Below the pieces are notes generated by a model that saw only the letters and a list, made by a program, of their open reading frames with translations, did no database searches and was not told the origin of the DNA. A stretch of 57,578 nt of DNA, taken from positions 1 through 57,578 of IMG/VR virus record IMGVR_UViG_3300046049_000065. One strand, 5' to 3'. The position numbers were made by a program, and so were the translations under genes. Positions 18,942 to 57,578 of this stretch are shown here, in pieces (position 1 is the first letter of the stretch; every line of letters starts with the position of its first letter). The DNA is from a virus (taxonomy: Duplodnaviria > Caudoviricetes).

Positions 18942-19559
18942 ATGAACATAGAGGAATCTAAGCACATCGGTCAGCCGCTGTCTGAGGTTCCAAAACAGGA
19001 CCCAACGGACGCGGCTTGTATGGCTCGGAAAAAGCAGAAGCAAAACGGCGAGGTCGCTCGGGACGCTGATGGGGAAGCGCTCTTCGGCGGGTACTGTCGT
19101 GCGTGGCCTGGAAAAGGAACTGACCATGTAGGCGACGGCCGCTGCTCACTGCACGCCGGGGCGGCCACGTTTACGGGCAGCGATAACTCGGCTTTTGACA
19201 CCGGGCTGTTCAGCGATCATCTGCCTGAAAAGGACCGTCGAACAGCCGAGGCGCTTAAGGAGTACACGGACGAGGAAAAACTTGAGGAGTTGATCAACTG
19301 GCGGCTGGCGCGGCTTCGGCGGCACCTGCGTGAAGCGTCTAAGGAGAAGGAGACCTCGTTTTGGGATGCCTTCCGTGCGGTCGTTGACGCAGCGGGCGAC
19401 GTCGAAGGCGACGAGATTCGGGAGCTCGCCCGGATGCTCGACAAGAACAACGAAGCCGTCCAGCAGGAAATCGACTTAGTTCGAAAGCTGATCAAGGCCC
19501 GGAACAAAATTGCCGAGGGCGAGTCGGTGAACATCAGTTTGGATGACCTCTACTCATGA
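18942..19559 (+). CDS. terS: terminase small subunit (putative)
   Basis: GRCSLHAG (HGGxSTG-like) motif; overlaps the terL start. Confidence 0.7.
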   Translation: MNIEESKHIGQPLSEVPKQDPTDAACMARKKQKQNGEVARDADGEALFGGYCRAWPGKGTDHVGDGRCSLHAGAATFTGSDNSAFDTGLFSDHLPEKDRRTAEALKEYTDEEKLEELINWRLARLRRHLREASKEKETSFWDAFRAVVDAAGDVEGDEIRELARMLDKNNEAVQQEIDLVRKLIKARNKIAEGESVNISLDDLYS

Positions 19560-21076: not shown

Positions 21077-21078
21077 CT

Positions 21079-34426: not shown

Positions 34427-34474
34427 CCGCAGAGATTTTCAGAGAGATCACTGGTCCGCATACTGAACCGCTCC

Positions 34475-35035
34475 ATGACTGACGACGATCGGGCCGCCCG
34501 GCCCACGCCCGGCCCGAACCAACCGGTCCCGTCGTGGCCGGAGTACGACCAGCTGAAGACAGCGCTGCACGAGTACCTCGACCACGAGCCCGACGACCCA
34601 GCGTGGGACGACATCTGGCGGGCCCTGGCGGCAATCCTCAGCGAGTACCAGCGGGACGCGTTCATCCAGGCGTTCGACCTCGCCGAGCCGGCTGAGACAC
34701 CCTGCATCCGGCGGCTGATCACTGGCGCTGACGAGTGTCCCCACAGCCCGCTCGAGGCCGACCGCGATTCCGGCGACCCGCCGCACAGCCCGCCGGCCGA
34801 CGACCACGCGACCCTGTGGCTCGACGCCGACGGCGAGCCGGCGTTGTACGGGATGCACGTCTACCCGGGCAACATCGAGCGGCTGGATGCCCCGGGACCA
34901 CCGTACAACCAGTGGTTCGACCTCTTTGAGTTCGCCGCCACGTGGGGCCTGGAAGTGTCGGTGCTGCCGAAGTCATGGTACAACCTTGGGTCGACTGTCC
35001 ACATCGTCTTCTACCCGCCGGAGCGATACCGATGA
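34475..35035 (+). CDS. hypothetical protein
   Basis: Acidic, 186 aa. Confidence 0.75.
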   Translation: MTDDDRAARPTPGPNQPVPSWPEYDQLKTALHEYLDHEPDDPAWDDIWRALAAILSEYQRDAFIQAFDLAEPAETPCIRRLITGADECPHSPLEADRDSGDPPHSPPADDHATLWLDADGEPALYGMHVYPGNIERLDAPGPPYNQWFDLFEFAATWGLEVSVLPKSWYNLGSTVHIVFYPPERYR

Positions 35036-36066: not shown

Positions 36067-39000
36067 ATTTTCGAAGCACTCGCGGGAGAGATCAGTCTTT
36101 CGGCTGACACTTCTGGCGCCGACGAGGCAGCGAATGCTATCTCTCGCGTCGAAGACTCGGCCTCACGTGCCAGCAAGGCAGCCGTTGCTGTCGGGGGTGC
36201 GATGGCGGCCTCGGCGGCCGGCGGGATCGCCGCGGCGACAAAATCCGCCGCCGATTTCGAGGCGACCATGGCTGATGTCGAGAAAGTTACCAATGCTGGA
36301 ACAGCGGCCGAACTTGAAGGGCAGTTCATGGGCCTTGCGGAGACGATCCCGATCAGCCGGGAGGAACTCGTCAAACTTGGCGAGCAGGCGGGGAAGTTCG
36401 GTGCCGAGGGCACGGCCGAAATCGAGACCTTTGTTCGCAGCATCGGGAAGATACAGACCGCCACCGACCTGGCGGCTCGAGAGGCCGGCAAGCGATTCGC
36501 GAAGATCGCGGGCGCGGTCGGGGTGCCGCTTGGCGAAATCGACAAGTTAGGCAACGCGACAAACGCCCTCGCGGACTCAATGAAGACGAACGCGGCGGAG
36601 ATAACGGACACTGCGACGCGGGCGTCGAACGTCCTCTCCCAGCAGTTCGGCCTGAGCGAGGACGCTGTTCTTTCATTATCAGCCAGCCTGAATGAAGTCT
36701 CGCCCAGCTCGAGACGGGCTGCGGGATCGCTCCGCAGGGCGGCCGAGGCGCTGATGGACCCGAAAAAGGTTGAGGACATCGCCAGCGCCATCGGCATCCA
36801 GACGAGTAAGTTCCGCCAGCTTCGCGAGGAGAACCCCCAGCAGTTGTTGCGGATGGTCGCCGAGGCGATGGCGTCAGGCGGCCAACAGGCGCGCGAGTTA
36901 AGCGCGGTCCTGGGGAAGCGGGCCTCTCGTGCCTTCTCGAAACTCGGCAGCCAAACCGAGCGGACCGACGAGGCGATGCAGTTGGTCAACAAACAATTCG
37001 AGGACGGCACGTCGCTTGCCCGCGAAATGTCGATCCGGACCGACACTGCCGCCGGGCAGTGGCAGCTCTTTAAGAACGAGGTCATGAACGTCGCGACGAC
37101 CATTGGCCAGCAGTTCCTGCCCTACGCGAAGGACGCACTCGATGTGCTCCGTGACGTGACGGGGGCGTTCGCCGATTTGAACGAGCGGACCAATGGGTTC
37201 GCCGGGGCGGCAGCCCTCGTGACTGGGCTCGTCGGTGGTATCGTGACGGCGCTCGGGGGCCTCTACGGTGTTGTCACCTCGAGTGCGGTCGCGATGGGCG
37301 GTCTCTCGGGAGCGCTCGGTGCAGTGACGGCCGCGCTCAGTGCTCTCACCGGCCCGATCGGGCTGGTCGTCAGCGCTTTGGCTGGCCTCGCCCTCGCTGC
37401 GACGGGCCATCTCGATACTGTTATCAATGCGTTCAATTCGTTCCGCGATACCGTCGACAAGGCGATCGGCGGCGCGGCGACGTGGCTGCGGACCACGGGC
37501 GTCAAGCTCGTCGGCAAGGCGTTCCGCCTGATCGGCGAGGCGATTCGCGGCGCGCTCGAGGACGTGCTGAAGGCGCTCCGCGGTGACGATGATAGCATTA
37601 TCGGCTCGGCGATCAGCGAGGTGGTGTCGTACCTCCGCACCGACGCTGCGGGCGACCTGGCGGAAGCCGCGAGGATCGCCTTTGAGTTGCTGCTCGCGGG
37701 GGTGGAGGGTGTCCTCCAGGGGCTGACCGGGTCGGACAGTGATGCCTCAATCCAGGCAATGCTCGAGGCGGTCGCCCAGTGGCTCCGCACCGACGGGGTG
37801 GCACTCCTCAGCGACGCGGCGGGTGCGGCCTTCGACGCAGTCATCGACGCTGGGAAGGACCTCGTCACGCGGCTGATCTCGGCTGGCGATAGCGTCTTTC
37901 GGTCACTCATCAGCGCAATAACGACGTATCTCGAGGACCAGGCCGCCGAAGATATCAAGGCTGCATTCCGGGCCCTCGGAAGCGGCATTCGGGAGACGCT
38001 GTTAGAGTTCTTCCAGCTGCAAACAAAGCTCGGGACAGTCATCACGGACTTCATCGGCGCCGTCAAGGACTACATCGCAGGCGGACAAGCAGCCGAGGAC
38101 ATCAAGGCCGCATTTCGTGCCCTCGGGAGCGGCATTCGGGCGGTGCTGTTGGGGTACTTTCAGCTCAATAAGAAGCTCGGCCAGGTCATCGTGGACTTCT
38201 TCGGCGCCGTCAAAGAGTACATCGCAAGCGGGCAGGCCGCCGAAGATATTAAGGGCGCATTCCGCGCCCTCGGAAGCGGCATCCGGACAGTCTTGTTAGG
38301 GTACTTTCAACTGCAAAAGAAACTCGGCCAGGTCATCAAAGACTTCATCGGCGCCGTCTACGACTACATCGCGAGCGGGCAGGCGCTCGAGGACATGAAG
38401 AAGGCGTTTGGCCTGCTTTCGGAGGGCGTAAAGACTGTCCTGGAGAAGTGGTTTCAGCTGAATAAGAAGCTCGGACAGGTCATCAAGGACTTCTTCGGGG
38501 CTGTCAAAGAGTACGTGGAGGGTGGTGAAGGGTTCAAGGACCTGAAGACGGCCTTCGGGGCGCTGGCCGGCATGATCAAAGCGGCGTTTGTGGGGCTGTT
38601 TGAGGGGCTGTTCTACGGGTCGATCATCAAGGACTTCTTCAGCGACGTCGCGGGGTACGTCGGGCGCGGCGGCGAAGGCTTCTCGAAAATCAAAGGGGCC
38701 TTCCAGACGCTTGCCGGCGCGATAGAGAGCGCACTGAACAGCATCAGCATCGACTGGCCCGAGCCACCGGAGCGTGTCAAGCGGTGGATGAACGGCAACT
38801 TCGACACGCCGTCCTCGCCTGACCGTGACGACAGCGCTCGCGGCAGCGCTCGCGCCGGGCCTGGCGGCGGTGGGGGCGGTGGTGGCGGCGGGCAAATCGC
38901 GGCGTTCCAGCACGGCGGGTACACCCGCGCCGAGGGCTGGGGCTACCTCCACCCCAACGAAGTTGTTTTCGGGGTCGAGGCGGGCGCCGAGGCCATCGTC

Positions 39001-39147
39001 GACGCGATGGAGGGCGCCGGAGCGCCACAGCTCGTTGTCGAGGAGGGCGCCATCCAGGTTGACGGCGCGGGCGACCCCGAAGAGGTCGCCAGGGAAGTCC
39101 TCCGCCAGCTCGACCGCAAGCGCCGCCGCCTCTATCCCGATGGGTGA
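36067..39147 (+). CDS. tail tape measure protein (TP901-like); apparent ATT start, first ATG at 36202
   Basis: ADFEATMADVEK core; Ala/Gly-rich helical repeats; ~1000 aa. Confidence 0.9.
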   Translation: MFEALAGEISLSADTSGADEAANAISRVEDSASRASKAAVAVGGAMAASAAGGIAAATKSAADFEATMADVEKVTNAGTAAELEGQFMGLAETIPISREELVKLGEQAGKFGAEGTAEIETFVRSIGKIQTATDLAAREAGKRFAKIAGAVGVPLGEIDKLGNATNALADSMKTNAAEITDTATRASNVLSQQFGLSEDAVLSLSASLNEVSPSSRRAAGSLRRAAEALMDPKKVEDIASAIGIQTSKFRQLREENPQQLLRMVAEAMASGGQQARELSAVLGKRASRAFSKLGSQTERTDEAMQLVNKQFEDGTSLAREMSIRTDTAAGQWQLFKNEVMNVATTIGQQFLPYAKDALDVLRDVTGAFADLNERTNGFAGAAALVTGLVGGIVTALGGLYGVVTSSAVAMGGLSGALGAVTAALSALTGPIGLVVSALAGLALAATGHLDTVINAFNSFRDTVDKAIGGAATWLRTTGVKLVGKAFRLIGEAIRGALEDVLKALRGDDDSIIGSAISEVVSYLRTDAAGDLAEAARIAFELLLAGVEGVLQGLTGSDSDASIQAMLEAVAQWLRTDGVALLSDAAGAAFDAVIDAGKDLVTRLISAGDSVFRSLISAITTYLEDQAAEDIKAAFRALGSGIRETLLEFFQLQTKLGTVITDFIGAVKDYIAGGQAAEDIKAAFRALGSGIRAVLLGYFQLNKKLGQVIVDFFGAVKEYIASGQAAEDIKGAFRALGSGIRTVLLGYFQLQKKLGQVIKDFIGAVYDYIASGQALEDMKKAFGLLSEGVKTVLEKWFQLNKKLGQVIKDFFGAVKEYVEGGEGFKDLKTAFGALAGMIKAAFVGLFEGLFYGSIIKDFFSDVAGYVGRGGEGFSKIKGAFQTLAGAIESALNSISIDWPEPPERVKRWMNGNFDTPSSPDRDDSARGSARAGPGGGGGGGGGGQIAAFQHGGYTRAEGWGYLHPNEVVFGVEAGAEAIVDAMEGAGAPQLVVEEGAIQVDGAGDPEEVAREVLRQLDRKRRRLYPDG
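37939..38720 (+). repeat. 147-bp (49-aa) tandem repeats in tape measure, ~5 copies
   Basis: QAAEDIKxAFRALGSGIR...KLGxVIxDFxGAV units start at 37939, 38086, 38233 and 38380, then degenerate. Confidence 0.85.
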
Positions 39148-45699: not shown

Positions 45700-46512
45700 C
45701 TATCGGCGGCAGAGTACTTCGTGGAGCCGCCCGGCGTTCTCGGGGCTGGGCGTGGCGTCGCGTCTCTCCCAGTGAGCAACGGCGCTCGGCGAGACGCCGA
45801 CCGCGTCTGCGAGGTCGGCCTGCGAGAGGCCCAGTTCTTCGCGGGCCGCTGCGAGGTCGCTCCCGAGCGGAACGGTTTCAGGGTCTCTCGGCTCGGCGGC
45901 GGGATCATCGTCGCTCTTTTCATCCTCATCTGCGTCGCGGTCGCCGCGGATGGCGAGTCGCTTCGCGCGGCCCCACGAGCCGAACCGCCGCTGATACGTG
46001 TTCGCGTTGGGGACTCCCTCGGCGTCGTCCATTTCAGTCACCGTCGGCGGCTTCAACTGCTTCGCTGTAAATTCCCGGATGTACTCAAGCAGTTCATCGC
46101 GCGAGTACTTCGGGACCTCATTGCGTGGCTTCGTTACGCTCAGTCCAGCAGCCCGCAACGCATTATTGAATGACCCGAAGCGATTAGAAAGTGTTTTGAT
46201 GCTGATGTCAGCTTGCTCCCGCACTTCGACGGCCCCAGGCGACCGACCAAATTCATCTGCAAGATCGCGCAGCTCACTCAGCAATTCCTCCTCGGTGTAG
46301 GCCTGCCCGTCATCCCTCCGTTTGGCCCGTTCTTCGACGGCCTCGGCCGAGAATCCCGCTTCCAGAAGTGCCTGCTCCCACGACTCAAACCGATACTGGT
46401 ATGTGCCTTTGTGCGGGGCATCCGGTTCGTCTCGAAGATCGGCTTGCATCGGCGGGCGACCCTCTTCGCCGAGGTCCCGCAGCCACTGTAGCAGTTCGTC
46501 TCTGGAATACAT
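45700..46512 (-). CDS. homing-endonuclease-associated repeat protein (3 repeats) + XRE HTH
   Basis: Y(S/T)..ELL...RFGS(W/F)..AL.AAG x3; GLSQADLADAVGVSPSAVAHWE. Confidence 0.85.
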   Translation of the reverse strand: MYSRDELLQWLRDLGEEGRPPMQADLRDEPDAPHKGTYQYRFESWEQALLEAGFSAEAVEERAKRRDDGQAYTEEELLSELRDLADEFGRSPGAVEVREQADISIKTLSNRFGSFNNALRAAGLSVTKPRNEVPKYSRDELLEYIREFTAKQLKPPTVTEMDDAEGVPNANTYQRRFGSWGRAKRLAIRGDRDADEDEKSDDDPAAEPRDPETVPLGSDLAAAREELGLSQADLADAVGVSPSAVAHWERRDATPSPENAGRLHEVLCRR

Positions 46513-47830: not shown

Positions 47831-47835
47831 AGAAG

Positions 47836-47917
47836 TCACTCTATGCCGCGGTTCCGCCACTCTGCGACCCCCATCAAAGCTGGCCTGAAAGAACTAGAGG
47901 ACGATAGAAACGGGTAG
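47836..47917. pseudogene. deletion scar: cysH 3' end fused to the 3' end of the divergent regulator gene
   Basis: 47836-47875 matches 51836-51875 (35/40); 47872-47913 matches 56371-56412; joined at a shared CATC. Confidence 0.8.
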
Positions 47918-48058: not shown

Positions 48059-49507
48059 TTATTTTTTCGAAAGGACGTTGAGCGAGTCTCCCAACTGAGA
48101 CCGAAGTTCGTCGCCATAGAACGTCCGTGTGTGCGGTGTCTCGATGTCGGCGGGCGTCGTTTCAACTTCCCACGATGGCTCCAGCGCCACCGCAGCGGCC
48201 GATATATCGATGATATGGTACCCACCGACCGGCGACGAGTGGTCAAGCAGGATGTCGCCCACTGCTATCGGCTGGACCACCGCGCCGACATCGACTGCAA
48301 TCGCGTCGATTCGTGGGTCGTCAGCCGACCCGGGCGAGCGGTCGACCTCAACCGCCGTCGAACTACCTCTGGGGACGCCGCCGGGGCTCTGCCGGCGGGG
48401 CCGGAGCCCGGCGAGCTGGAGCGCGCGGTTGAAGCTCCCGAGCCGCCGCTCAATCGTCGTCGAGGGGATGTCACTCTCGGCCTCGAACGCGGCCACGGTC
48501 GGGACGGCCCGCAGCTCATCAGCAACGCGGCGGACCGCCTCGACGAGTTCCATATCGGTGTAGGTCTTGGCGTACGCCTCTCGGCCAGGGTTCGGGGTAT
48601 ACCCAGCGGCCGCGACCGCCGCATTCCAGCGCTCAAAGTGCCGGAGCACCGTGTGCAAGGATAGCTCCGCATGGTTGGTCCAGTCATCGACGGTCGGGGC
48701 CTGTCCGCCGTCTGGGATACCGACCGCGGCGGCGACCGCGTGAATCTCCTCGAGGACATCCTCGGCGGTAATGTGTTGTCGAGGGTCTAACCCCGCCTGG
48801 ACCAGCGCCGCGGCCCACGAGCCGAACCGCTCGCGGTAGATCCTATACGAGTGGGGCCCGTCAGCGTTCATCTGCCGCTTCGACGGTCTGGCGGTTACCC
48901 CGCTCTTCCGATAGTTCGCTAGATCCCGCAATTCGGTGATCAACTCTCGGTCCGTCGGGCTGTCTCGCGGCCGAGTCGGTGGATCGATGGCAACTTCTTC
49001 GAGCGCCCTGTTCCAGTCACCCCACCGTTCTCGGTACGTCGTTGCGCCGTATGCGCCCGCCTCGTCCATATCTAGTTCACTCGGCGCCCGGCCCAACTCG
49101 CGCGTCAGACGCGCCAGTTCGTCCAGTAGGTCGGCATCGGACCGTTTCGTCCCCGTGTTCGGCTCGAAGCCGGCGGCCTCAAGTGCCGCCGAGAACGACC
49201 CAAAGCGGTCCTGAAATGTCCACACGTGCGGCGTCTCGGCGGCGTCGTTGACCATCTCGACGGTCGGTGTCTCCCCGGTCTCCGCGGCGAGCTCGTGCAA
49301 CATCTCGACCAGCGCGTCCGCATCCAGTGTCGACGGGCGCAGACCCGCAGCCTCCAGTGCCCCGTCCCACGATCCGAACCGCCGTGTGTAGGTGGGATAA
49401 CTCGGGCTGTCCTCGTGCGCTTGCAGGTCGCTCACGGTCGGGCGCCCATCGACGGTGCCCGCGAGCTCCTGGAGCATTTCAATCAGCTCGTCTTCTGTGT
49501 ATGGCAT
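48059..49507 (-). CDS. homing-endonuclease-associated repeat protein (6 repeats)
   Basis: Six RFGSW..AL.AAG-type units; no HNH motif. Confidence 0.85.
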   Translation of the reverse strand: MPYTEDELIEMLQELAGTVDGRPTVSDLQAHEDSPSYPTYTRRFGSWDGALEAAGLRPSTLDADALVEMLHELAAETGETPTVEMVNDAAETPHVWTFQDRFGSFSAALEAAGFEPNTGTKRSDADLLDELARLTRELGRAPSELDMDEAGAYGATTYRERWGDWNRALEEVAIDPPTRPRDSPTDRELITELRDLANYRKSGVTARPSKRQMNADGPHSYRIYRERFGSWAAALVQAGLDPRQHITAEDVLEEIHAVAAAVGIPDGGQAPTVDDWTNHAELSLHTVLRHFERWNAAVAAAGYTPNPGREAYAKTYTDMELVEAVRRVADELRAVPTVAAFEAESDIPSTTIERRLGSFNRALQLAGLRPRRQSPGGVPRGSSTAVEVDRSPGSADDPRIDAIAVDVGAVVQPIAVGDILLDHSSPVGGYHIIDISAAAVALEPSWEVETTPADIETPHTRTFYGDELRSQLGDSLNVLSKK

Positions 49508-50211
49508 CAGCCGAGATCCACCCCCCTTTCATCGCAAAATTCAACGAAGTCATCGAGCCATACCAGATACTCCTCTGACGTGTAGGCGAGCCGGACGAGC
49601 CACCGTTCTTCGCCCCGGTCCGTGACGGCCAGCTCAAAGCCATCAATCGTGACGCGTCTGTCATCAATCGATATTCGACCACTGGAGAGTGTCTGTGTGT
49701 CTCCGTTGTGCGTCATGGTGAGTTCTGTGCCGATGATAGTGGGCGTTCTGGCGACAGCGTCCGGCGAGACGGGCCGTGGGAACGCACCATTGGCCCATGT
49801 CTGTGGAGGATTCGCCCCTCGGCCGCGGCGGTCGGGCGCTGGGCCATCGAACCCGGCGGCATCCAGCACTGATTGCCAGCCGCCGAAGCGGGTCGTGAGT
49901 GTCGCGTGCGACGGGAGCGAGTCGTTATCTTGCACGTCGGCCGATGATGGGGGGTGGCCCAGCGTTTCGCCGAAGTCCCGCACCAGTTCGAGAAGCTCCT
50001 CGTCCGTATATTTGTCTGGAATGCGGTCCGAGACGGCGTCTTCGTCGAACCCGGCCGCCCGGAACGCCGCTATGAGCGATCCAAAGTGGTCCCGGTAGTG
50101 ATATCCTGACGGGGCGTCGGGGTGGTCGCGAAGGTCTTCGGACGTGGGTGGCGATTCTGGCCCATCTGCGAGCTGCCACAGCCACTCGATGAGTTCCTCT
50201 CGGTCGGTCAT
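49507..50211 (-). CDS. homing-endonuclease-associated repeat protein (2 repeats)
   Basis: HFGSLIAAFRAAG, RFGGWQSVLDAAG; alternative start at 50241. Confidence 0.8.
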   Translation of the reverse strand: MTDREELIEWLWQLADGPESPPTSEDLRDHPDAPSGYHYRDHFGSLIAAFRAAGFDEDAVSDRIPDKYTDEELLELVRDFGETLGHPPSSADVQDNDSLPSHATLTTRFGGWQSVLDAAGFDGPAPDRRGRGANPPQTWANGAFPRPVSPDAVARTPTIIGTELTMTHNGDTQTLSSGRISIDDRRVTIDGFELAVTDRGEERWLVRLAYTSEEYLVWLDDFVEFCDERGVDLG

Positions 50212-50234
50212 GTCGAGCAGGTTCTCAAGTATCG

Positions 50235-50274
50235 TTGACATCCCCCTCGCCCTGAAGGACGGGGCTTCCGCTTG
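50235..50274 (-). mobile_element. 40-bp single-hairpin IS200/IS605 remnant
   Basis: TTAG|CAAGCGGAAGCCCCGTCCTTCAGGGCGAGGGGGATGTCAA: left-end start fused to right-end finish. Confidence 0.65.
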
Positions 50275-50359
50275 CTAAACGTCATCCGCGTCACTGTCGA
50301 GGGGTTGCGCCTCATCCCGCCCCGCCTCGGGGTGGTCGGGATACGCCGGGTCGCGGACA

Positions 50360-51748
50360 TTACGCTTCCGGCAGTGTCTGTGTCGCTTTGTCGAGCGCGT
50401 CAGAGACGTTTTTGTGGTCGGCATCGCCCTTCCGAGCGCCCCACGCGTTCCGAGACTCGCCGCGGATCGCAACGCCGTAGTAGGCCCACGCCTGGCCGGG
50501 CGCGAGGCCGCGGCGCTGGAGGCCGTTGACGGCGGCCTCGACGAACCGCTGTCCGGCCTCGCCGTCTGCGGGGAGACGGACGACGAGCGGGTAGGTCACG
50601 CCCCAGCTGTACTCGCGGTCGATCTGCTCGGCGACGCGGTGGTGGACCGACGAGACGACCCGCTCGGCGGTGTCGTCGACGGTGACCGGGCCGTCGTAGG
50701 CCTCGAGCGCCCGACAGACCGCATCGCGCTCGCCGGTGTCGAGGACGACCACGCCGTCGTCCTGCGCGACGACGAGTGTGTCGGTGCGCTCGATGCTGTC
50801 CAACCACTCGCCCCAGACGGTCTCGACGCCGTACTGGACGTGGGCGAGCAGCTCGCGGACGTCGTCGACGGTGAGCGCTTCGGGGTGGCCGGGGTCGCCG
50901 TGCTGGGCAAGGGCGTCCTCGATGATCGCGTCGTCAACGTAGTCGGTGACGCGGTCCGTACCGACCTCGCCGCCGTCGCACGCTGCATCGGGGGTATCCC
51001 CACCGCCACCGTCACCGTCACTGTCGCGCTCCCAGAGCGTGTTCGGGGGCGTCCCTCTGCCCGTCTTGTCAAAGAACTCGGCGCTCCAGCCGTCCCACCC
51101 GCTCTCAATTGAGTCCACACGGTCGGGGCGGTACGTTGCGACGACAGCGGTTGTCTCGTCGATCTGCGCTTCGGCGCGGAGCCGCCCGTCGTAGACGTAC
51201 ACGTGCTCAACCGGACAGGAGTCCGGGACGCTGCCGTAGTAGTTGCTAAGGTCACTTTTCCGAAACATCGTCGGGACCGTAACCGTCTGCCCATCGTACT
51301 CAACTTCGACCTGGCCGCCGTCGGTGACGATTTCGTGCTCGCCGGTACTCCCGCCGTCAGCGGTCTCCTCGTCGGCCGCCTCGCCGTCGGCCCCGTCGCC
51401 CTCGTTGTCGGCGGCGAACGCCTCGCCGCTCAGCGAAACCGTGATCTCGTGCTCATGCTTGCCGCCGGAGACCTCAATGGTGATCGTCGCCGTGTCGCCG
51501 GTGATCTCAACGGTGCCGCCGGAGTGCTTGGCCTCGTTGTTGCTGACGATCTCGTGGGTCTGGAGGTCCACGTAGAGGTCGTACTTGTCGGCCTTGGCGA
51601 TGCCGTCGTTGATGTACAGCCGGTCGTGGCCGTACTTGCTCCAGCGGTCAATCTCCAAGTGGTCGCTCGGCTCGGCCCAGTCCTGCTTGTAGGCGCCGTT
51701 GTAAAACGCTTCGAGCTCGATGTCGTCGGCGTCGGTGAGTGCGGGCAT
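50360..51748 (-). CDS. mosaic multi-domain protein, HTH-like C-terminus
   Basis: WSKYGHDRLYIN N-terminal domain; TDGG/CDGG linkers. Confidence 0.75.
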   Translation of the reverse strand: MPALTDADDIELEAFYNGAYKQDWAEPSDHLEIDRWSKYGHDRLYINDGIAKADKYDLYVDLQTHEIVSNNEAKHSGGTVEITGDTATITIEVSGGKHEHEITVSLSGEAFAADNEGDGADGEAADEETADGGSTGEHEIVTDGGQVEVEYDGQTVTVPTMFRKSDLSNYYGSVPDSCPVEHVYVYDGRLRAEAQIDETTAVVATYRPDRVDSIESGWDGWSAEFFDKTGRGTPPNTLWERDSDGDGGGGDTPDAACDGGEVGTDRVTDYVDDAIIEDALAQHGDPGHPEALTVDDVRELLAHVQYGVETVWGEWLDSIERTDTLVVAQDDGVVVLDTGERDAVCRALEAYDGPVTVDDTAERVVSSVHHRVAEQIDREYSWGVTYPLVVRLPADGEAGQRFVEAAVNGLQRRGLAPGQAWAYYGVAIRGESRNAWGARKGDADHKNVSDALDKATQTLPEA

Positions 51749-51766
51749 GGTCTGTCTCGCCTCACT

Positions 51767-51813
51767 TGGTAGTAATGAACCCATGATAATAAAGGTTGGG
51801 TTTTATACTACCA
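51767..51813 (-). promoter_or_regulatory. TATA promoter flanked by a 17-bp inverted repeat
   Basis: TGGTAGTAATGAACCCA / TGGGTTTTATACTACCA (14/17) around minus-strand CTTTATTAT. Confidence 0.7.
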
Positions 51814-51835
51814 CCTTGACATCCTTCTCTGTGCG

Positions 51836-52648
51836 TCACTCGATGTCTCTATTCCGCCACTCTGCGACCCCCATCGCCGCGCCGCCGATCTCCTCGAACT
51901 GCGGATCAAAAAACGTCGTGAACCGCGCCCGCTCGTAGGCCCGCGGGCTGCCGTCGCCGGTCGTCGCTGCGAGTCGGTCGTAGTGGTCCGGATATGTGAG
52001 ATTCTGATCGACGATGTAGGCCCACACATCGCGCGCCGACCACTCGCGGATCGGGAACGCGGCGGGTTGGCCGAGGGATTCGCCGTACAGGCCGCTAAGT
52101 TTTCGGTCGCGCCCCCCGCTCTCGCCGGCTCGCAGGCCGACGAGCTGGCGGCTAACCATGCCTGTCTGGGCTAAGACCCCCGCCAACCGAGAGAGGCTTC
52201 CATCCGGGTCGGAGATACCATCGTCGGTGTTGAGACCGCGCTTGAATCGGTCTGCGCTGGAGAAGGGTCTGACTTCCGTGGCTCCCCGAGCTGCAACGAA
52301 CAGTCGGGTGTCGGGCACGAGGGCTCGAGCGGCCTCAACAACCGCCCGCTCTATCTCCCGGGGGATGAGCCGAGCGCCCCAGTCCCAGTGGAACGCTCGA
52401 TGGCGGCAGTCCGCGCGGTTCGCGAGCGCCAGCACGACTGTTGAGTCCTTCCCGCCCGAAAACGCCACGGCCGCATTCGGGTCGCGGTCGAACACCTGCT
52501 CGATCTCCGCGACGGCCTCGTCGGGGCGGTCGCCCAGCTCCTGGTCGGCGTGCGCCTGGAACGCCCGCCGCGTCCGGTCGGCCATTCCGTCACTCCCACG
52601 GTCGAAGTCGAACTCGGCACTGTCCTCTGGGTCCGGGAAATCTACCAC
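51836..52648 (-). CDS. cysH: CysH/PAPS-reductase-like PP-loop protein (type IV-B ancillary)
   Basis: AFSGGKDS, GLRAGES..R, PIREWSARDVWAYI; GTG start with GGAGGTGG SD. Confidence 0.9.
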   Translation of the reverse strand: MVDFPDPEDSAEFDFDRGSDGMADRTRRAFQAHADQELGDRPDEAVAEIEQVFDRDPNAAVAFSGGKDSTVVLALANRADCRHRAFHWDWGARLIPREIERAVVEAARALVPDTRLFVAARGATEVRPFSSADRFKRGLNTDDGISDPDGSLSRLAGVLAQTGMVSRQLVGLRAGESGGRDRKLSGLYGESLGQPAAFPIREWSARDVWAYIVDQNLTYPDHYDRLAATTGDGSPRAYERARFTTFFDPQFEEIGGAAMGVAEWRNRDIE

Positions 52649-53340
52649 GCCGGGTCCACCTCCGCCCCGGGCGGTGCGCACTCGGTCGCCCACTGTGTGT
52701 ACCAGTACGGCGTCCGATAGGTGAGCGTCTGCTGGTCATCCCACTCGTCGAGGACCTCCGTCGGGAGCGGTCGCATCGCAACGCCCTTGCTGGGATGCAC
52801 GAGTGAGTGGTCGGCATTCAGCTCGCGCAGGCCCCAGTCGTCGACGCGGCCGAATCCCTTGGCGGTATGCTTCCCAAGGTCGGCCAGATGGGTTTCGAGA
52901 AGGTGCTCAATCCGCTCGCGGTCGCCGCGGAGGTAGAACGTACACCGGCGGGCAGGCCGGTAGACGACGTCGATCATCTGTGACTTGAACGCGCCGCCGC
53001 CAATAGGGATCTTTGATCGGGGACGAGCGCCGCCGACCGTATGTGCCCGGACTTCGTCGTACGAGGAGTACAGCGTCGTCTCGACGGTCCGGTCGGTGTC
53101 GAACTGTGAGACGGAGGCGTGGGCGATGCCGTCGGTGTACGCCAGCCCGGCGTCGACGGCGTCCACATCTCGGAGGTCGGCCGGCCCGTCCTCTTCGAGG
53201 TTGGCGACCCAGCGGTCGTATTCGCGGCCGGCGTGGTCGATGAGGGCGAGCCGCTGGAGCACCCCGTCGCCATTGATCCACGGATGGCCGAGCGCGACGC
53301 CGCTGCCGAGTTCGAGCGTCAGCTGGAGGTTCGCGGTCAT
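52642..53340 (-). CDS. csf3: Csf3 (Cas5-group RAMP)
   Basis: DGVL, GDRERIEHLL, LGKHTAKGFGRV..W, MRPLP, YRTPYW. Confidence 0.85.
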   Translation of the reverse strand: MTANLQLTLELGSGVALGHPWINGDGVLQRLALIDHAGREYDRWVANLEEDGPADLRDVDAVDAGLAYTDGIAHASVSQFDTDRTVETTLYSSYDEVRAHTVGGARPRSKIPIGGGAFKSQMIDVVYRPARRCTFYLRGDRERIEHLLETHLADLGKHTAKGFGRVDDWGLRELNADHSLVHPSKGVAMRPLPTEVLDEWDDQQTLTYRTPYWYTQWATECAPPGAEVDPAW

Positions 53341-54122
53341 GCGCACACCTCGTGCGCTTCGGCGTCGGCGCGGATCTGGAGCATCCCGAACCCGTAGGAG
53401 CGCTTTGCCCCGACACCGCGTGCGAGGAGTTCGTTCAGTGCCGCGCGGTGGGCGTCGTCTCGAACCTCGTAGCGCAGGTCCCACTTGCTGGCGATGAGCG
53501 TGATTGTCTCCGCCGGCGTGACGTCGACGCGGACGCCGTAGGTTTTCCGATGCCCGTACTCGTCGAACAGCCGCAGCGACGGACGCTCGAGTCCAGCCTC
53601 GTGTTCGAGCACATGACCGGCAGTGCGGTGGAGCGCCGTTTTGAACGCTTCCGGCGAGTGCTCGCGGTGGCTCCAGTACGTCGGCGTCGCGCCGTGGTCG
53701 TTCTCGCTTGGCTGCTCGACAGTGACGACAACCCCCGATGTCGTCGTGAGGACGCCCGCAGACCCGGGGTCGCCGACACCCGTTTCAAGCGGTTTCGCGG
53801 CGCGGGTCTCGAACACCATCGACCCGGCAGTGAGTTCGGGCTCGCGTTGAAGCCCGTCCGCGATAGCCTCCATGACATCCAACCGCGGCGCGGCGATAAG
53901 CAGATGCACGCCGTCGCCTGCATCAAGGGTCGCGCCGGGAGCGTGGTCGTCTCGGATGGGTATCAGATCGGAGAACGTGAACGGCGGCCGTTGACTCTCT
54001 CGGTGGTCGTCAATGCCCGCACGCTGGAGCGTCTGGCCGAGCCGTCCTCTGATGTTGCGGTGGTACTGTCGCTCCCACGCACAGTCGTGGGTCGCCTGGA
54101 GCCGGAGTAACAGCTGGTACAT
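53337..54122 (-). CDS. cas6: Cas6 endoribonuclease (haloarchaeal type I-like)
   Basis: LLLRLQA...YHRNIRGRL, PFTFS and C-terminal GVGAKRSYGFG (GhGxxxxxGhG). Confidence 0.88.
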   Translation of the reverse strand: MYQLLLRLQATHDCAWERQYHRNIRGRLGQTLQRAGIDDHRESQRPPFTFSDLIPIRDDHAPGATLDAGDGVHLLIAAPRLDVMEAIADGLQREPELTAGSMVFETRAAKPLETGVGDPGSAGVLTTTSGVVVTVEQPSENDHGATPTYWSHREHSPEAFKTALHRTAGHVLEHEAGLERPSLRLFDEYGHRKTYGVRVDVTPAETITLIASKWDLRYEVRDDAHRAALNELLARGVGAKRSYGFGMLQIRADAEAHEVCA

Positions 54123-54128
54123 GAGTGG

Positions 54129-55031
54129 CTACCTGTCGGCGATGGTGTCGAGCGCCTCGATGATCTCGCCGCCCTGTTCGTCGACGTACTCTGTGTAGCG
54201 GTCGGCTTCCGAAAGGTCAAGCTCGTAGCTGATGTCGACCCGACCGAGGCCGGCCGCGGACATTGCGCCGATGGTCCCCTCCTCCTGCCAGAGCCGGAGA
54301 CCATGAAGGAGACAGGATCGTGCGAGATCCGTCGTGCGGGACTCGAATTTGACGCTGTGTTCGAACTGCGCGCCGGGGATCAGCACGTCAAAGTGGTAGA
54401 TCATCTGGTGGCTGTCGACATCGTCGGATTCGGTGTTGTCTTCTGCATCGGAATCAAACCCAAAGTCGACATCCATCCCAGTGTCGTCGGGCTCGTCGTG
54501 CATTCGCGTCTGGTGCATCTCGCTGACGAACTCGCGCCACGAGATGTCGGACTGGGTTTCGTTTCGGTAGTTGTTTTCCTCGCAGATCAACGCCAAATGG
54601 TGGATATTGACCGTCCCCTCAAACATCTGGTTGCCTGTTGAGCCGCCGAGTAGGTCGATAAGTGGGAACGTGTTGCGGATCGTTCGACGCAGCCCAACAT
54701 CAATCTCCGCCTTGCCGTCTTTTTCGAGGACGCCGCCCGCCCGCAGCAGGTGGTAGAGCCGCTCGTCGGTGATCGTGTAGTCAAGTCGTTGGACGAGGTC
54801 CTCTGCTAGGAGTCGTCGGAGGTGGCCGCGGATTGAGTTTCCTGAGACGAATGGCACGTCCTCGAATGTGTTCCCGTCAAGCACCCGGATTTTTTCTTTG
54901 CGGAGAAGTTGTTTGTTACCTGTCTGTGCGTCCGCTCCCGTATGGATCTGCGAAATGGCGGTCGCCCCGCCGACGACAGCTTCGGTCGCGCCGAGTTCGG
55001 TACCTTTAAGATATGCCTCTGTAGTGCTCAT
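54129..55031 (-). CDS. csf2: Csf2 (Cas7-group backbone)
   Basis: VPFVSGNSIRGHLRR, R..FPLIDLLGG, QMIY..DVLIPG, IGAMSAAGLG. Confidence 0.9.
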   Translation of the reverse strand: MSTTEAYLKGTELGATEAVVGGATAISQIHTGADAQTGNKQLLRKEKIRVLDGNTFEDVPFVSGNSIRGHLRRLLAEDLVQRLDYTITDERLYHLLRAGGVLEKDGKAEIDVGLRRTIRNTFPLIDLLGGSTGNQMFEGTVNIHHLALICEENNYRNETQSDISWREFVSEMHQTRMHDEPDDTGMDVDFGFDSDAEDNTESDDVDSHQMIYHFDVLIPGAQFEHSVKFESRTTDLARSCLLHGLRLWQEEGTIGAMSAAGLGRVDISYELDLSEADRYTEYVDEQGGEIIEALDTIADR

Positions 55032-55032
55032 G

Positions 55033-55452
55033 TTAGTCCTCCGTGATGAAGTCGCTGAGTTCGCTGGTCGTCGGATTCGATTCGGCGTCGGTGTCGCTGT
55101 TCTGTTTCGCCTCGAAGTAGTTCTGAACCGTCTCTCGTGTCTTAGCCGTAAGCCAGATATCCTCTTTGCGGAGGATTTCCATCGCCAGGTCGCTGTCCGC
55201 GACGAGCGGGTCCAAGTGTTCGGTCGGCAGGTCCGGCGACGCCATGTTCAGTCCATGGGCGAGTTTCTTGAACGCGCCGTGGACGCTGCCCGCGTTCGAT
55301 GCCGCTTCCAGGCGTTCCTCGAAGGTTGCGCTTCGGCGCTTTTTGTCGGGGAACTCTCCCCAGTCGGTCTCTCGCCAGAACTCGGAGAGAATGACAATCC
55401 AGTCCTGTGCGAGCTTATTCTCGTGGTCGGTGAGGTCGCTTGCAAGTACCAT
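55033..55452 (-). CDS. cas11: Cas11-like small subunit
   Basis: 139-aa helical protein between csf1 and csf2. Confidence 0.6.
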   Translation of the reverse strand: MVLASDLTDHENKLAQDWIVILSEFWRETDWGEFPDKKRRSATFEERLEAASNAGSVHGAFKKLAHGLNMASPDLPTEHLDPLVADSDLAMEILRKEDIWLTAKTRETVQNYFEAKQNSDTDAESNPTTSELSDFITED

Positions 55453-56135
55453 TATTGGATGAGTTGCACCGCAATCCGCCAGTCCTCACGGCCGGTGAGG
55501 TCGGTGTTGATACGGTCTACCTCGTCGCGCTCGAAGTCGTACCGGGCGAGGTCGGCGGCCCGGACCGGGCCCTTCAGCGCGCGTTTCGAGGGCTCGTTCT
55601 CGCGGCCGCGGAGCCGTTGGCCGAACGCGACCATGTCGGCGAACCGCTCGCGGTTGATGGTGACCAGGCGCTTGTCCACGAGCAGCTGGTAGTCCTCGCG
55701 GGACGTATTGAGCGTCTGTGCGAAAATCCAGCCATTCAGGACGGTGAGAAAGTCGGATTCGTCCTTGTACTTTGCCATCCATGGGCCCTCCGGCGGGTCC
55801 AGCAGGACATCGAGGAGTTCGGGCCGTTCCTTGATGATCTGGACGCCGTCTTCGGGTGTGGCGATCCAGTGGTAGCGCCGGTAGTCCATCTGGCCGGCGA
55901 CGTGCTCACACCGGTAGCAGATGCCGTCGCCGTCGCTGAGCGCTCGGTCGCTCGTGAACGCATCGGAGAAGACGCCATTGGTTCGTCGGACGGGCTTGAT
56001 CGGGCCGCCGAGGCCGCAGATCATGCACTTGCCCGTCTCGTCCGGGTCGTCTGGCGGTTCTACGTCGTCCGTTTCGGCGACGATGGCTGAGAGCCGTCGC
56101 GCGTTCTCGGACGCCTCTGTCTGTAACTCTGGCAT
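55452..56135 (-). CDS. csf1: Csf1 (Cas8-like large subunit with Zn finger)
   Basis: CMICG...FSDAFT...GDGICYRC; first gene of the operon. Confidence 0.75.
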   Translation of the reverse strand: MPELQTEASENARRLSAIVAETDDVEPPDDPDETGKCMICGLGGPIKPVRRTNGVFSDAFTSDRALSDGDGICYRCEHVAGQMDYRRYHWIATPEDGVQIIKERPELLDVLLDPPEGPWMAKYKDESDFLTVLNGWIFAQTLNTSREDYQLLVDKRLVTINRERFADMVAFGQRLRGRENEPSKRALKGPVRAADLARYDFERDEVDRINTDLTGREDWRIAVQLIQ

Positions 56136-56177
56136 GCCGCGGTGGTAAATCGTGTCTCTGTGGCTATTAGCCTTTCG

Positions 56178-56212
56178 GACAGGTGGACACAACACTCATT
56201 TGTCTACCTGTC
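56178..56212. promoter_or_regulatory. operator-like inverted repeat between the cas operon and the divergent regulator
   Basis: GACAGGTGGACA-N11-TGTCTACCTGTC (11/12), directly upstream of minus-strand GAAAGGCTAATAG. Confidence 0.65.
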
Positions 56213-56272
56213 GTATTGTCGAGCAGGAGCAAAACTAGAATGTCTAATGGACGGAGAGAGATAGGCGAAACT

Positions 56273-56431
56273 ATGCGACCGAACATCCAAATCAGCCATC
56301 AGCTGAACGGACGCGTGAAAGATTACGCTGCTAAACACGACCTTACGACCGGAGAGGCCTACAAACAAATCATCAAAGCTGGCTTAGAAGAATTAGAGGA
56401 CGATGGAAGCGAGTCAGCTACCAACGGCTGA
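56273..56431 (+). CDS. small RHH-like regulator; C-terminus supplied by the IS right end
   Basis: MRPNIQISHQLNGRVKDYA...AYKQIIKAGL. Confidence 0.7.
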   Translation: MRPNIQISHQLNGRVKDYAAKHDLTTGEAYKQIIKAGLEELEDDGSESATNG

Positions 56432-57578
56432 AGCCGTTGGCTTGTCGGTGGACTCCCGTTCTGCCGACACATACTGGTCGGACGCCACTTCAGTAGCGTT
56501 CACGGTCATCACCCCCGACTTTAGGGCGTACTGACAGAACGCCCCTCCAGCGGGGGACTTCTGCCCTCGCTGGAGTTTTAGTGCAAGTTTCCGAGCAATA
56601 TTCTTCGCGGCGTTGTAGTCGGCGTTTGCCGTGTACGAACAGTCCAAGCACTCGAAGTGTTGCCCGTCGCGGTTTTCATCAAGGGTCGTGCCGCACTTCG
56701 AGCATTGCTGGCTCGTGTAGGACGGGTCAACCGTTTCCACTACGATGCCAGCCAGTTCCGCTTTGTGTTTCGTCTGCTGTTGGAGTTCGCGGAACGCCCA
56801 CTGCTGGAACTTCTTGCCGTCGCTGATACGGTCACGAATCTGCTCCAAGTCCTCGAACGCGATATGCGAACAGTTCTGTTGATTGGCTTCTTCGACAAGT
56901 GCCTTCGAGCATCGGTGCAGATAGTCCTCACTCCAGCGTCCAAACCTGTCACCGATACGGTGGTAGGTCAGGTGGGCACTTCGCGTGCCGGTCTGTTGGA
57001 GGCTGGCACGCCGCTTCTCGAATTCGTGGCGCTGGTGGTTGAGGAAGTCAGCATTGCCGACGAATCTGCCTGTTGAAGTCACGGCGATGTGGTCATCAAC
57101 GTTGCAGTCCACGCCAAGCACTCTCGAATGCTCGGCTTTCTCAGGACGGGCAACGTCGAGTTCCCGTTCCATTGCCGCGTGGAGGTAGAACTCGTCGGAT
57201 TCGCTATCGTAGTGGACGGTGCTGGTTGAGAAGGAGTAGTCGTCGTTCAGCAGGTATTCGCCGTGTGGCGTGCCGTCCGGGTTGTCGGGCAGGTCGTAGT
57301 CGCATTCGACTCTGCCGTTGATTGTGGCGAGACTTACTTTGTCGCGGTAGTAGGTGGCGGCTCGCTTGTCATAGACGATACTGAACGTGTCGTACTCGGG
57401 TTTGCTGGTGTTCTCGCCGTCAGCAAGCCGGTCAACACAGTTTCCAATATCGTCGGTGGCACGTTTGATGGCTTTCTGGACGAGGTTCGCGTGCAGGCCG
57501 TCCGTCTCGTGGCGGAGTTCGTGGTAAATGGCGGCCTCGGCTTCGCTCTTGCTGGTCACGCAGTCCTCATTGGGATAG
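56413..57578 (-). mobile_element. IS200/IS605-family element (right end visible)
   Basis: Hairpin CCAACGGCTTCAGCCGTTGG followed by TAGCTGAC terminus. Confidence 0.85.
56414..57578 (-). CDS. tnpB: TnpB RNA-guided nuclease (5' end outside window)
   Basis: RuvC GVD, FEDL and ADYNAA; zinc finger CSKC/CLDC. Confidence 0.95.
   Translation of the reverse strand, partial: YPNEDCVTSKSEAEAAIYHELRHETDGLHANLVQKAIKRATDDIGNCVDRLADGENTSKPEYDTFSIVYDKRAATYYRDKVSLATINGRVECDYDLPDNPDGTPHGEYLLNDDYSFSTSTVHYDSESDEFYLHAAMERELDVARPEKAEHSRVLGVDCNVDDHIAVTSTGRFVGNADFLNHQRHEFEKRRASLQQTGTRSAHLTYHRIGDRFGRWSEDYLHRCSKALVEEANQQNCSHIAFEDLEQIRDRISDGKKFQQWAFRELQQQTKHKAELAGIVVETVDPSYTSQQCSKCGTTLDENRDGQHFECLDCSYTANADYNAAKNIARKLALKLQRGQKSPAGGAFCQYALKSGVMTVNATEVASDQYVSAERESTDKPTASAVGS

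Follow-up and report, generated by a model that had tools for sequence, protein, structure and literature searches.

Which RNA the effector complexes of type IV-B CRISPR-Cas bind, and what the CysH protein encoded beside them does, are treated as an open question in reviews (PMC8175902; also PMC11656645, in the part accessible to us). A virus of Halobacteria brings this question to a point. The IMG/VR virus record IMGVR_UViG_3300046049_000065, the whole of which was analysed here (57,578 bp, linear, CheckV completeness 82%; hereafter the window), carries a type IV-B operon with an embedded gene for Cas6 and no CRISPR array. Which RNA might such a Cas6 supply to the effector complex? As described below, the cas6 gene is a fixed part of the operon in a whole clade, is maintained by purifying selection, and has been exchanged between operons as an exact cassette. 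Our best-supported guess, which is a tentative one, is that its product captures the type I-B precursor CRISPR RNA (pre-crRNA) of the host.

A type IV-B operon with an embedded cas6 gene

The minus strand of positions 51836-56135 holds a type IV-B effector operon with the gene order csf1-cas11-csf2-cas6-csf3-cysH-like (Table 1). All six open reading frames (ORFs) are intact and all six products match profiles, which bears out the initial annotation of the window, made from the sequence alone, in reading them as one coupled operon. That annotation had extended the interval to 56431, and this part did not stand, as 56183-56431 is taken up by a divergent plus-strand gene outside the operon. The genes are packed for coupled translation. 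Specifically, csf1 and cas11 overlap in TAATG, gaps of 1 and 6 nt separate cas11 from csf2 and csf2 from cas6, and cas6 is coupled to csf3 through an ATGA overlap. Two genes start inside longer listed ORFs. For csf1 (listed as 55452-56195), the ATG at 56135, which opens the sequence MPELQTE, is conserved in the related loci L008, L009 and L010. The start of csf3 was placed at M49 of its listed ORF (position 53340) because the Cas6-less relative L002, described below, aligns only from residue 49.

Csf1, Csf2 and Csf3 are divergent members of their families, since their scores of 36.6, 45.7 and 39.6 bits all lie below the cut-offs of the NCBIfam equivalog models (140, 130 and 140, respectively). 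Csf2 also exceeds the cut-off of the Pfam RAMPs family (27.1 bits against 22.1), and its E value for TIGR03115, the model whose cut-off it does not reach, is 5.1e-12. The cas11 product has no Pfam or NCBIfam match. The final gene encodes a PP-loop protein, as had been proposed, with an intact SGGKDS motif that is present in nine of ten aligned homologues. No cysteine column is conserved among these ten. The protein of the window has a single, non-conserved cysteine and a cysteine-free C-terminus, and it lacks the conserved C-terminal catalytic cysteine of assimilatory CysH/3ˊ-phosphoadenosine-5ˊ-phosphosulfate (PAPS) reductases. One RNA-library sequencing run contains contigs that match cysH (52275-52466, no differences) and positions 56226-56393; such libraries can contain DNA.

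The locus has all features of the published definitions of type IV-B save the absence of Cas6. It carries no DinG or RecD helicase (RecD was not searched for specifically) and no effector nuclease. The initial annotation had also stated that cas1, cas2, DinG and an array are missing from the window, and searches of the record agree: they revealed no Cas1, Cas2, Cas4 or DinG-type helicase domain (Helicase_C_2), no CRISPR-like array, and no Rfam CRISPR repeat family, either at the gathering threshold or at E values up to 5. Its statement that no nuclease is present applies to the operon and not to the window, where the gene for an RNA-guided nuclease, tnpB, adjoins the operon within an inserted insertion sequence (IS). 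Because the record is 82% complete, an array-less window does not equal an array-less virus.

The viral Cas6 resembles haloarchaeal type I enzymes

The central assertion of the initial annotation, that a virus-borne, array-less type IV-B operon contains a Cas6 like those of haloarchaeal type I systems, is upheld by the profile matches and by the viral structural genes in the record. The protein matches the PADLOC Cas6b profile over its full length, with an E value of 4e-52 compared to 2e-6 for the best type IV Cas6 profile. It scores above the cut-off for Pfam Cas_Cas6_C (23.8 bits against 23) and below that for TIGR01877 (E 4.6e-13; 50.1 bits against 58.65). An AlphaFold2 model (predicted local distance difference test score, pLDDT, 85; predicted template modelling score, pTM, 0.85) indicates a Cas6 fold, with a predicted double ferredoxin/RRM architecture and a C-terminal glycine-rich loop. 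The top Foldseek matches of this model include the PH0350 Cas6 (3qjj, E 1.6e-16, template modelling score 0.72) and PfCas6 with substrate RNA (3pkm, E 1e-12).

Residues Y20 and H21 and the glycine-rich loop G236-G246 (G236, G238, G244 and G246) are invariant in the clade of related viral proteins. H21, a candidate for the catalytic histidine, is found in 25 of 25 clade members and in at least 90% of 19 cellular homologues. In total, 31 alignment columns are at least 90% conserved for the same residue in the 25 viral-clade and 19 cellular proteins, including Y20, H21, G26, R27, S212-K213-W214, H225, N230 and the glycine-rich loop. For cas6, the ratio of nonsynonymous to synonymous divergence (dN/dS) between L008 and L009, the two most closely related loci, is 0.058 at a dS of 0.57, and the neighbouring genes have values of 0.04-0.13. 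Thus, cas6 is maintained by purifying selection. Together, these data indicate that the viral Cas6 is a working RNA-binding protein, and it is probably catalytic as well.

Full-length homologues with at most 41% identity were found in 102 of 301 sampled Halobacteria genomes. Twelve regions surrounding the best of these were examined, and 11 of them contain type I-B arrays, whose repeats form one family and are 29-31 nt in length apart from one truncated 21-nt call. The viral protein belongs to the haloarchaeal Cas6 (Cas6b-like) lineage, from whose cellular members it has diverged.

The csf2-cas6-csf3 arrangement is fixed in a clade

Relatives of this Cas6 form 39 clusters, the window's own included, with 47-100% identity, and nearly all are metagenomic. 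Searches of viral, genome and metagenome collections with Cas6 or its alignment yielded eight distinct contigs that encode it, one of which is part of a Halobacteriales metagenome-assembled genome. In all eight, cas6 lies directly upstream of csf3. The gene on its other side is csf2 in six contigs, and the remaining two begin inside cas6 and continue into csf3 and cysH. The order csf1-cas11-csf2-cas6-csf3-cysH is seen in six contigs, as far as each reaches. Among the eight is the 63.5-kb IMG/VR virus G302, rated 100% complete, which carries the same six genes and has portal, protease, capsid-like and replication genes in common with the window at 35-61% translated identity.

The csf2-cas6-csf3 layout is therefore fixed in a whole clade and is not a one-off. 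Csf2 proteins with at least 47% identity fall into 34 clusters, compared to 39 for Cas6, and seven Cas6 and Csf2 clusters coincide in the size of their longest contig, suggesting that most of this Csf2 clade travels with Cas6. Together with the dN/dS of cas6, the predicted fold and the 31 conserved columns, the constant position in eight of eight contigs makes a stronger case for Cas6 as a working part of the system than the initial annotation could.

Relatives outside the clade differ in this respect. Plasmids of Natrinema, Halomontanus and Thermococcus nautili carry csf1-cas11-csf2-csf3-cysH without cas6. On the Natrinema and Halomontanus plasmids (L003 and L004), the cysH-like gene is located about 4 kb downstream of csf3, and the interval contains small ORFs and genes for a DUF3440 PAPS-reductase-like protein and a ParB-like protein. 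Genes of phage-like character (Gp37/Gp68 family, HNH endonuclease) are found on both plasmids as well. A coding sequence near csf2 on the Thermococcus nautili plasmid (NZ_OX281346.1; L005, 9824-10567), annotated as 'CRISPR-associated endoribonuclease Cas6', was rejected as a Cas6, since it matches Csf3_0_IV with an E value of 1.7e-50 compared to 2e-7 for Cas6. It is probably a misannotated Csf3, and hence not a second archaeal example.

More distant type IV-B contigs in IMG/VR, with Csf2 proteins 25-32% identical to that of the window, gave no hits (0 of 19) to a hidden Markov model specific for the Cas6 clade. PADLOC was run on 10 unassigned ORFs from nine of these distant loci, a set to which the gap ORFs of L055, L059 and L062 do not belong, and assigned six as Csf1 and one as Cas6, leaving three without a match. 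The single Cas6 is a Cas6d-like gene (E 1.3e-17) between cysH and csf3 at 9693-10370 of L057, a 60.4-kb IMG/VR contig rated 100% complete, and represents an independent gain of Cas6 by a type IV-B system. No array was found in the whole of this contig or in the flanks of the plasmid loci and the distant type IV-B loci. In two AT-rich IMG/VR contigs with type IV-B loci (L062 and L063, 960-1066), a 32-nt sequence occurs as two identical copies, 75 nt apart, some 7 kb upstream of csf2, and this pair may be a mini-array.

Exchange and loss of cas6

Two members of the clade, L006 and L008, are sisters on the tree of Csf2 and Csf3 with a support of 99/98. Between them, dN is 0.02 in csf2 and in csf3. 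For cas6, dN is 0.42 and dS is 1.13. Sliding-window DNA identity is 80-100% across csf2, is 46-70% across exactly the cas6 ORF, and from the opening codons of csf3 onward is again 83-98%. Evidently, cas6 alleles have been swapped as exact one-gene cassettes between near-identical operons. Specificity modules and arms-race modules behave in this way. The coincidence of the swap boundaries with the ends of the ORF argues against an RNA substrate that is located outside the ORF and transferred with it.

Loss of the gene is suggested by L002, a plasmid of Actinarchaeum halophilum (NZ_CP071309.1). The 90-nt gap between its csf2 and csf3 (9826-9915) contains a 27-codon mini-ORF that begins MHCLLRLRS, 7 nt past the csf2 stop codon. 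Its sequence resembles the Cas6 N-terminus (MHQLLLRLR) and it sits where viral cas6 starts, with a weak DNA match (12/27 ungapped). From this resemblance, cas6 was likely deleted in this plasmid lineage. On the Csf2 and Csf3 tree, L002 falls in an unresolved polytomy with Cas6-bearing loci, which form one clade in 4% of the bootstraps.

Host spacers match the operon

Spacers were sought in 401 sampled Halobacteria genomes with the window up to 56413, which leaves out the tnpB end. The search used three pieces, with E limits of 1e-3, 1e-6 and 1e-7 across them and two candidates scored per genome. Among the 19 short high-identity matches that were inspected, five are spacers in arrays, from four of the 401 genomes, and the other 14 lie outside arrays. 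All five spacers match the operon (Table 1), with protospacers in csf1, cas11, csf3 and the 3ˊ end of csf2; the claim is that such spacers exist, and no enrichment is claimed. Four of the arrays have 30-nt I-B-type repeats and one has a 37-nt repeat. The four protospacers that correspond to I-B-type arrays are preceded on their 5ˊ side by GTC, TCG, CTC and CTC. The spacers indicate that carriers of the operon meet haloarchaea with active type I-B systems. The swapping of cas6, its loss on a plasmid and the host spacers together suggest a live conflict with CRISPR-armed haloarchaea rather than a fossil.

Which RNA might the viral Cas6 supply?

Building on the initial annotation, which had suggested captured host pre-crRNA or a non-canonical viral RNA as the source of guides and a coupling to nucleotide transfer, we propose a mechanism in three steps, which are given in order of falling support. 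First, Cas6 would be an active RNA-binding endonuclease that supplies the Csf complex with a defined RNA that bears a 5ˊ handle of the repeat type and replaces the random RNA seen in type IV-B systems that lack Cas6. Second, this RNA would be host type I-B pre-crRNA, cleaved at the repeat and loaded on Csf3, Csf2, Cas11 and Csf1. Third, the loaded complex would withhold CRISPR RNA (crRNA) from the host Cascade, or would redirect the spacer memory of the host at rival elements, with the PP-loop CysH-like protein acting as the effector through ATP alpha-phosphate chemistry. Such adenylyl-transfer chemistry has been proposed for CasCysH (PMC8175902). The capture of host pre-crRNA, which is the second step, draws on the lineage of the viral Cas6, on the haloarchaeal I-B repeats, which are highly conserved across the sampled genomes, on the lack of a self-encoded substrate, and on the precedent of the CRISPR-associated transposons (CAST) discussed below. 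The complete scheme, in which viral Cas6 and host I-B crRNAs on a nuclease-free IV-B complex bring a CysH-like adenylyl-transferase to rivals or blind the host Cascade, is unlikely to be right in full.

Several observations weigh against the capture of host pre-crRNA. Scans of the window for repeats, Rfam families and upstream elements found no RNA substrate. According to the accessible portion of one report (PMC7937560), the type IV-B complex of Mycobacterium sp. JS623 assembled on heterogeneous RNA and showed no enrichment of type I-E crRNA even when Cas6e was co-expressed, and type IV-B systems co-occur negatively with other CRISPR systems. There is no Cas6 match in 199 of the 301 sampled Halobacteria genomes, and therefore many potential hosts would offer no pre-crRNA. 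In a tree of the 25 IV-B-linked Cas6 proteins and the 19 best cellular ones (the other hits of the 102 genomes being left out), the viral and cellular proteins split with 100% support in the Shimodaira-Hasegawa-like approximate likelihood ratio test and with 1.65 substitutions per site between the clades. The long branch fits one old capture from a haloarchaeal type I lineage. Moreover, nine columns are fixed in both clades with differing residues, and the RNA specificity of the viral Cas6 may therefore have moved. Plasmid L002, whose Csf2 is 67% identical, has intact csf1, cas11, csf2, csf3 and cysH without cas6, indicating that the IV-B core works, or at least persists, without it. Finally, an array is possible in the missing ~18% of this virus.

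Some of the same observations favour a different substrate. The viral Cas6 could process an RNA of non-CRISPR origin, transcribed from the virus or, if it contains a motif that Cas6 recognizes, from the host. This RNA would provide the Csf complex with a fixed guide, or a scaffold, that has no relation to the arrays of the host. This would agree with the long divergence of the viral clade and its nine fixed differences, with the frequent lack of Cas6 in potential hosts, and with the non-CRISPR RNA bound by canonical type IV-B complexes (PMC7937560, accessible part). Against this, the junctions between the operon genes leave no space for an RNA gene, and a substrate that is transferred along with the cas6 cassette would have to be inside cas6 itself. 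The sequences upstream of csf1 in the window and six relatives, inspected by eye and unaligned, are unlike one another. They contain operator-like palindromes and divergent genes for regulators that differ between the loci, and no non-coding element common to them was visible. No repeated hairpin family is prominent in the window. We consider this explanation somewhat unlikely, and it is the most serious competitor of host pre-crRNA.

Cas6 might also act alone as an anti-CRISPR protein that binds or mis-cleaves host pre-crRNA, or that competes with Cas6b for Cascade assembly, and might merely share an operon with the Csf genes. Its shared lineage with the host enzyme, the arms race evident from the host spacers and the swapping of alleles would all suit a counter-defence gene. 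In contrast, its constant place between csf2 and csf3 and the ATGA overlap suggest a co-translated subunit, and in none of the eight contigs does a Cas6 of this clade occur apart from the operon. A stand-alone role is thus quite improbable.

Alternatively, the operon could belong to a conventional CRISPR system with its cognate array in the missing ~18% of the genome, such as past the IS that terminates the contig. The record does end inside this IS, a variant contig runs on beyond 56414 with sequence unlike the window, and a type IV-B mini-array is known from a Bathyarchaeia virus (PMC10848311). However, the survey of homologous loci that the initial annotation had called for gave no array in the flanks (up to 10 kb) of 10 related loci. 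The complete G302, with its same six genes, likewise has none; it contains no repeat pair of at least 18 nt at a spacing of 40-110 nt, and no I-B repeat within three mismatches. Neither a solitary I-B-like repeat nor a mini-array was found in the window and seven related loci. When 12 haloarchaeal repeat variants, taken from arrays adjoining cellular Cas6 genes, were scanned, the best match was 20/30, which is within the range of 20 shuffles (19-21). We regard a hidden array as very unlikely. That the operon is an inert, decaying passenger, as the IS at its edge, the deletion of a second module copy (see below) and the apparent loss of cas6 in one plasmid lineage might suggest, is scarcely credible given six intact ORFs, the low dN/dS values of the closest pair, and the conserved PP-loop and Cas6 motifs.

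Edges of the operon

A small ribbon-helix-helix-like (RHH-like) gene divergent from csf1 is likely the regulator of the operon. Its product has no Pfam match and is 78% identical over 41 amino acids to a stretch of a Halomontanus plasmid; the RHH label was read from the sequence. A small divergent gene upstream of csf1 is also present in L008, L009 and L010. The final codons of the gene in the window have been substituted by the insertion of an IS at 56414. A variant metagenome contig tracks the window to this position and then continues for about 1 kb with unlike sequence, and similarity to an internal scar (below) likewise ends there. The tnpB gene therefore adjoins the type IV-B system but belongs to the IS and is outside the system. 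Far more metagenome contigs cover tnpB than cover the operon, a depth that also sums contigs of other organisms, and this is a hint that the IS family is common.

The scar is an 81-nt sequence about 4 kb downstream of the operon, in which two copied pieces, the last 41 nt of cysH and the 3ˊ end of the RHH-like gene, are fused directly, head to tail. By blastn, 47835-47875 matches 51835-51875 with 88% identity, and 47872-47915 matches 56371-56414 with 84% identity. The minus strand of the scar encodes a CysH-like C-terminus ending in MGVAEWRNRGIE and a stop codon. We take the sequence for what is left of a second IV-B module that lost about 4.5 kb of its interior by deletion at a CATC microhomology, and if so, an earlier duplication or relocation of the module occurred within this genome. 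The 41-44-nt flanking repeats were also considered as a Cas6 substrate and rejected. They fold no better than shuffled sequences (z -1.4 to +1.5) and one of them is the coding 3ˊ end of cysH, and the pair was taken as a deletion scar.

Three minus-strand proteins built of HNH_repeat units (PF18780, 'homing endonuclease associated') are encoded just downstream of the operon, at 45700-46512, 48059-49507 and 49507-50241 (E 3.6e-47, 2.3e-81 and 4.8e-26, respectively), and one of them has an HTH domain. A 474-amino-acid protein without a family match is encoded between these and cysH (50360-51784).

The carrier virus

The carrier is a tailed archaeal virus of Halobacteria, with PHROG matches that include an exonuclease in addition to the structural, packaging and replication proteins of Table 1. 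It is probably temperate. The window sequence is present in halite-labelled metagenome runs from three studies, and the run that contains it best may stem from the very sample that gave the record. A blastn search of phage records with the operon gave no match, and tblastn with Csf2 gave Skermania phage SPI1 (24% identity) as the sole match.

Table 1. Positions of the operon genes, neighbouring features, host-targeted sites and other viral genes in the window
Feature	Position	Strand	Evidence or description
csf1, type IV Cas8-like large subunit	55452-56135	-	PADLOC Csf1_0_IV E 3.3e-41; TIGR03114 E 3.5e-9
cas11, type IV small subunit	55033-55452	-	PADLOC Cas11_0_IV E 1.2e-26
csf2, type IV Cas7 backbone subunit	54129-55031	-	PADLOC Csf2_0_IV E 7.1e-73
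cas6, Cas6b-like endoribonuclease gene	53337-54122	-	PADLOC Cas6b PDLC01785 E 4.4e-52, full length
csf3, type IV Cas5	52642-53340	-	PADLOC Csf3_0_IV E 1.4e-47
cysH-like PP-loop protein (CasCysH-like)	51836-52693	-	PF01507 E 4e-10, 40.4 bits against 22.5
Small RHH-like gene, divergent from csf1	56270-56431	+	Translation MRPNIQISHQLNGRVKDYAAKHDLTTGEAYKQIIKAGLEELEDD...
tnpB of inserted IS	56414-57577	-	NF040570 E 2.2e-49; runs off record end
81-nt scar	47835-47915		Copy of cysH end fused to copy of RHH-like gene 3ˊ end
Protospacer in csf1	55518-55553		36-nt spacer, 35/36; 28-repeat I-B-type array, genome G151
Protospacer in csf1	56080-56113		34-nt spacer, 34/34; 36-repeat array with 37-nt repeat, genome G271
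Protospacer in cas11	55357-55393		37-nt spacer, 35/37; 48-repeat I-B-type array, genome G327
Protospacer at csf2 3ˊ end	54144-54181		38-nt spacer, 35/38 (35 consecutive identical); 13-repeat I-B-type array, genome G051
Protospacer in csf3	53194-53228		35-nt spacer, 32/35; 49-repeat I-B-type array, genome G271
Replication protein	10305-12848		PHROG match
Terminase large subunit	19556-21076		PHROG match
Portal	21019-22773		PHROG match
Head protease	26390-28003		PHROG match
Capsid-like structural protein	28462-29523		PHROG match
Tape measure	36202-39147		PHROG match
Integrase-family protein	6409-7083

Several other features of the genome were observed. A stretch of about 560 nt (34472-35035; ORF 34475-35035) has matches with 72-77% DNA identity in more than 20 of the 401 sampled Halobacteria genomes and is spread across genomes far more widely than the neighbouring stretches. 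Either a provirus gene is widely shared here or a host gene has been captured. On the minus strand, positions 1264-1472 give a sub-threshold Rfam match to the haloarchaeal small RNA sot0042 (59.6 bits against a gathering threshold of 88; E 8e-13) that overlaps a weak match to HgcC. At 50220-50337 lies another weak HgcC-like copy, and the two have a 20-nt hairpin in common. Positions 1275-1700, which include a conserved core, have matches with 70-88% identity at numerous sites in many Halobacteria genomes. This element looks like a widespread RNA element derived from an IS or a miniature inverted-repeat transposable element, and no tnpB fragment was found beside it. In addition, ARAGORN calls a tRNA-Asp gene with the odd anticodon ATC, alongside 2.8 tandem copies of a 32-nt unit (3307-3386 and 3503-3593).

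Comparison with known systems

The closest point of reference is the canonical type IV-B system, as exemplified by the JS623 megaplasmid (PMC7937560, accessible part; reviewed in PMC8175902). Both have csf1, cas11, csf2, csf3 and an adjacent PP-loop cysH-like gene whose product lacks the catalytic cysteine, both lack an array, adaptation genes, a helicase and a nuclease, and both are carried by a mobile element. They differ in the Cas6b-like gene embedded here between csf2 and csf3, and in the carrier, which is an actinobacterial plasmid there and a tailed archaeal virus here. The Csf2 of the window is about 24-32% identical to copies on Rhodococcus and Mycolicibacterium plasmids. Other type IV effectors, namely those of types IV-A, IV-D and IV-E, rely on a Cas6-family enzyme (Csf5 or Cas6) for guide maturation. 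These systems, however, contain arrays together with a DinG or RecD helicase, and type IV-A lacks Cas11.

The initial annotation had allowed for the layout being a catalogued variant, which proved to be so in part. Twelve Cas6-containing type IV-B loci are recorded as rare exceptions (Pinilla-Redondo et al. 2020, PMC7038947; in Supplementary Data S1), whereas the main text of that report, on which this comparison is based, describes no haloarchaeal viral clade, fixed csf2-cas6-csf3 order or cassette exchange. Type IV-B systems with CysH have also been found in archaeal viruses, including a Fuxivirus of Bathyarchaeia (PMC10848311) and a Methanoperedens virus (bioRxiv 10.1101/2023.08.02.551345). 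A host spacer is directed at the viral cas7 of the Fuxivirus, much as several host spacers match the present operon. Unlike the present locus, the Fuxivirus has a two-repeat mini-array. The Methanoperedens virus system is array-less like the one described here, and neither report mentions Cas6. Adaptation-less systems of haloarchaeal proviruses (PMC12596717) are type I-B with arrays of their own, and Csf genes are not mentioned for them. Hence Cas6-bearing type IV-B loci, although rare, are already known, as are array-less or mini-array type IV-B systems in archaeal viruses. In the literature searched, which was mostly outside subscription journals, no haloarchaeal viral type IV-B clade with an embedded Cas6b-like gene is described.

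Haloarchaeal type I-B systems provide the enzyme that the viral Cas6 most resembles. The Cas6b of Haloferax volcanii resides in a Cas5-Cas6b-Cas7 complex and makes an 8-nt 5ˊ handle (PMC4390866). The two proteins belong to the same family, with 30-41% full-length identity between the viral and haloarchaeal enzymes, a YH motif and a glycine-rich loop. In the virus, the partners are Csf proteins instead of Cas5, Cas7 and Cas8b. An array, Cas3 and Cas1-Cas2 are all missing, and the Cas6 belongs to a separate clade on a long branch. A precedent for the proposed use of host guides comes from CAST, whose mobile-element complexes load crRNAs from host arrays by contact between Cas6 and the repeat (PMC11656645, accessible part). 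CAST combine a type I-B, I-F or V-K effector with a transposase, and their use of host crRNAs has been demonstrated, whereas for the viral type IV-B system we infer it.

A type IV-B clade in which a Cas6 of the host I-B lineage has been incorporated, maintained and exchanged time and again makes the question of the bound RNA an experimental one. The specificity of this Cas6 names the RNA, and Haloferax offers both genetics and a characterised type I-B system. If the viral complex does run on guides taken from its host, it would be an array-less and adaptation-less system that depends wholly on host guides, and it would show both which RNA type IV-B complexes bind and by what chemistry their effector works.

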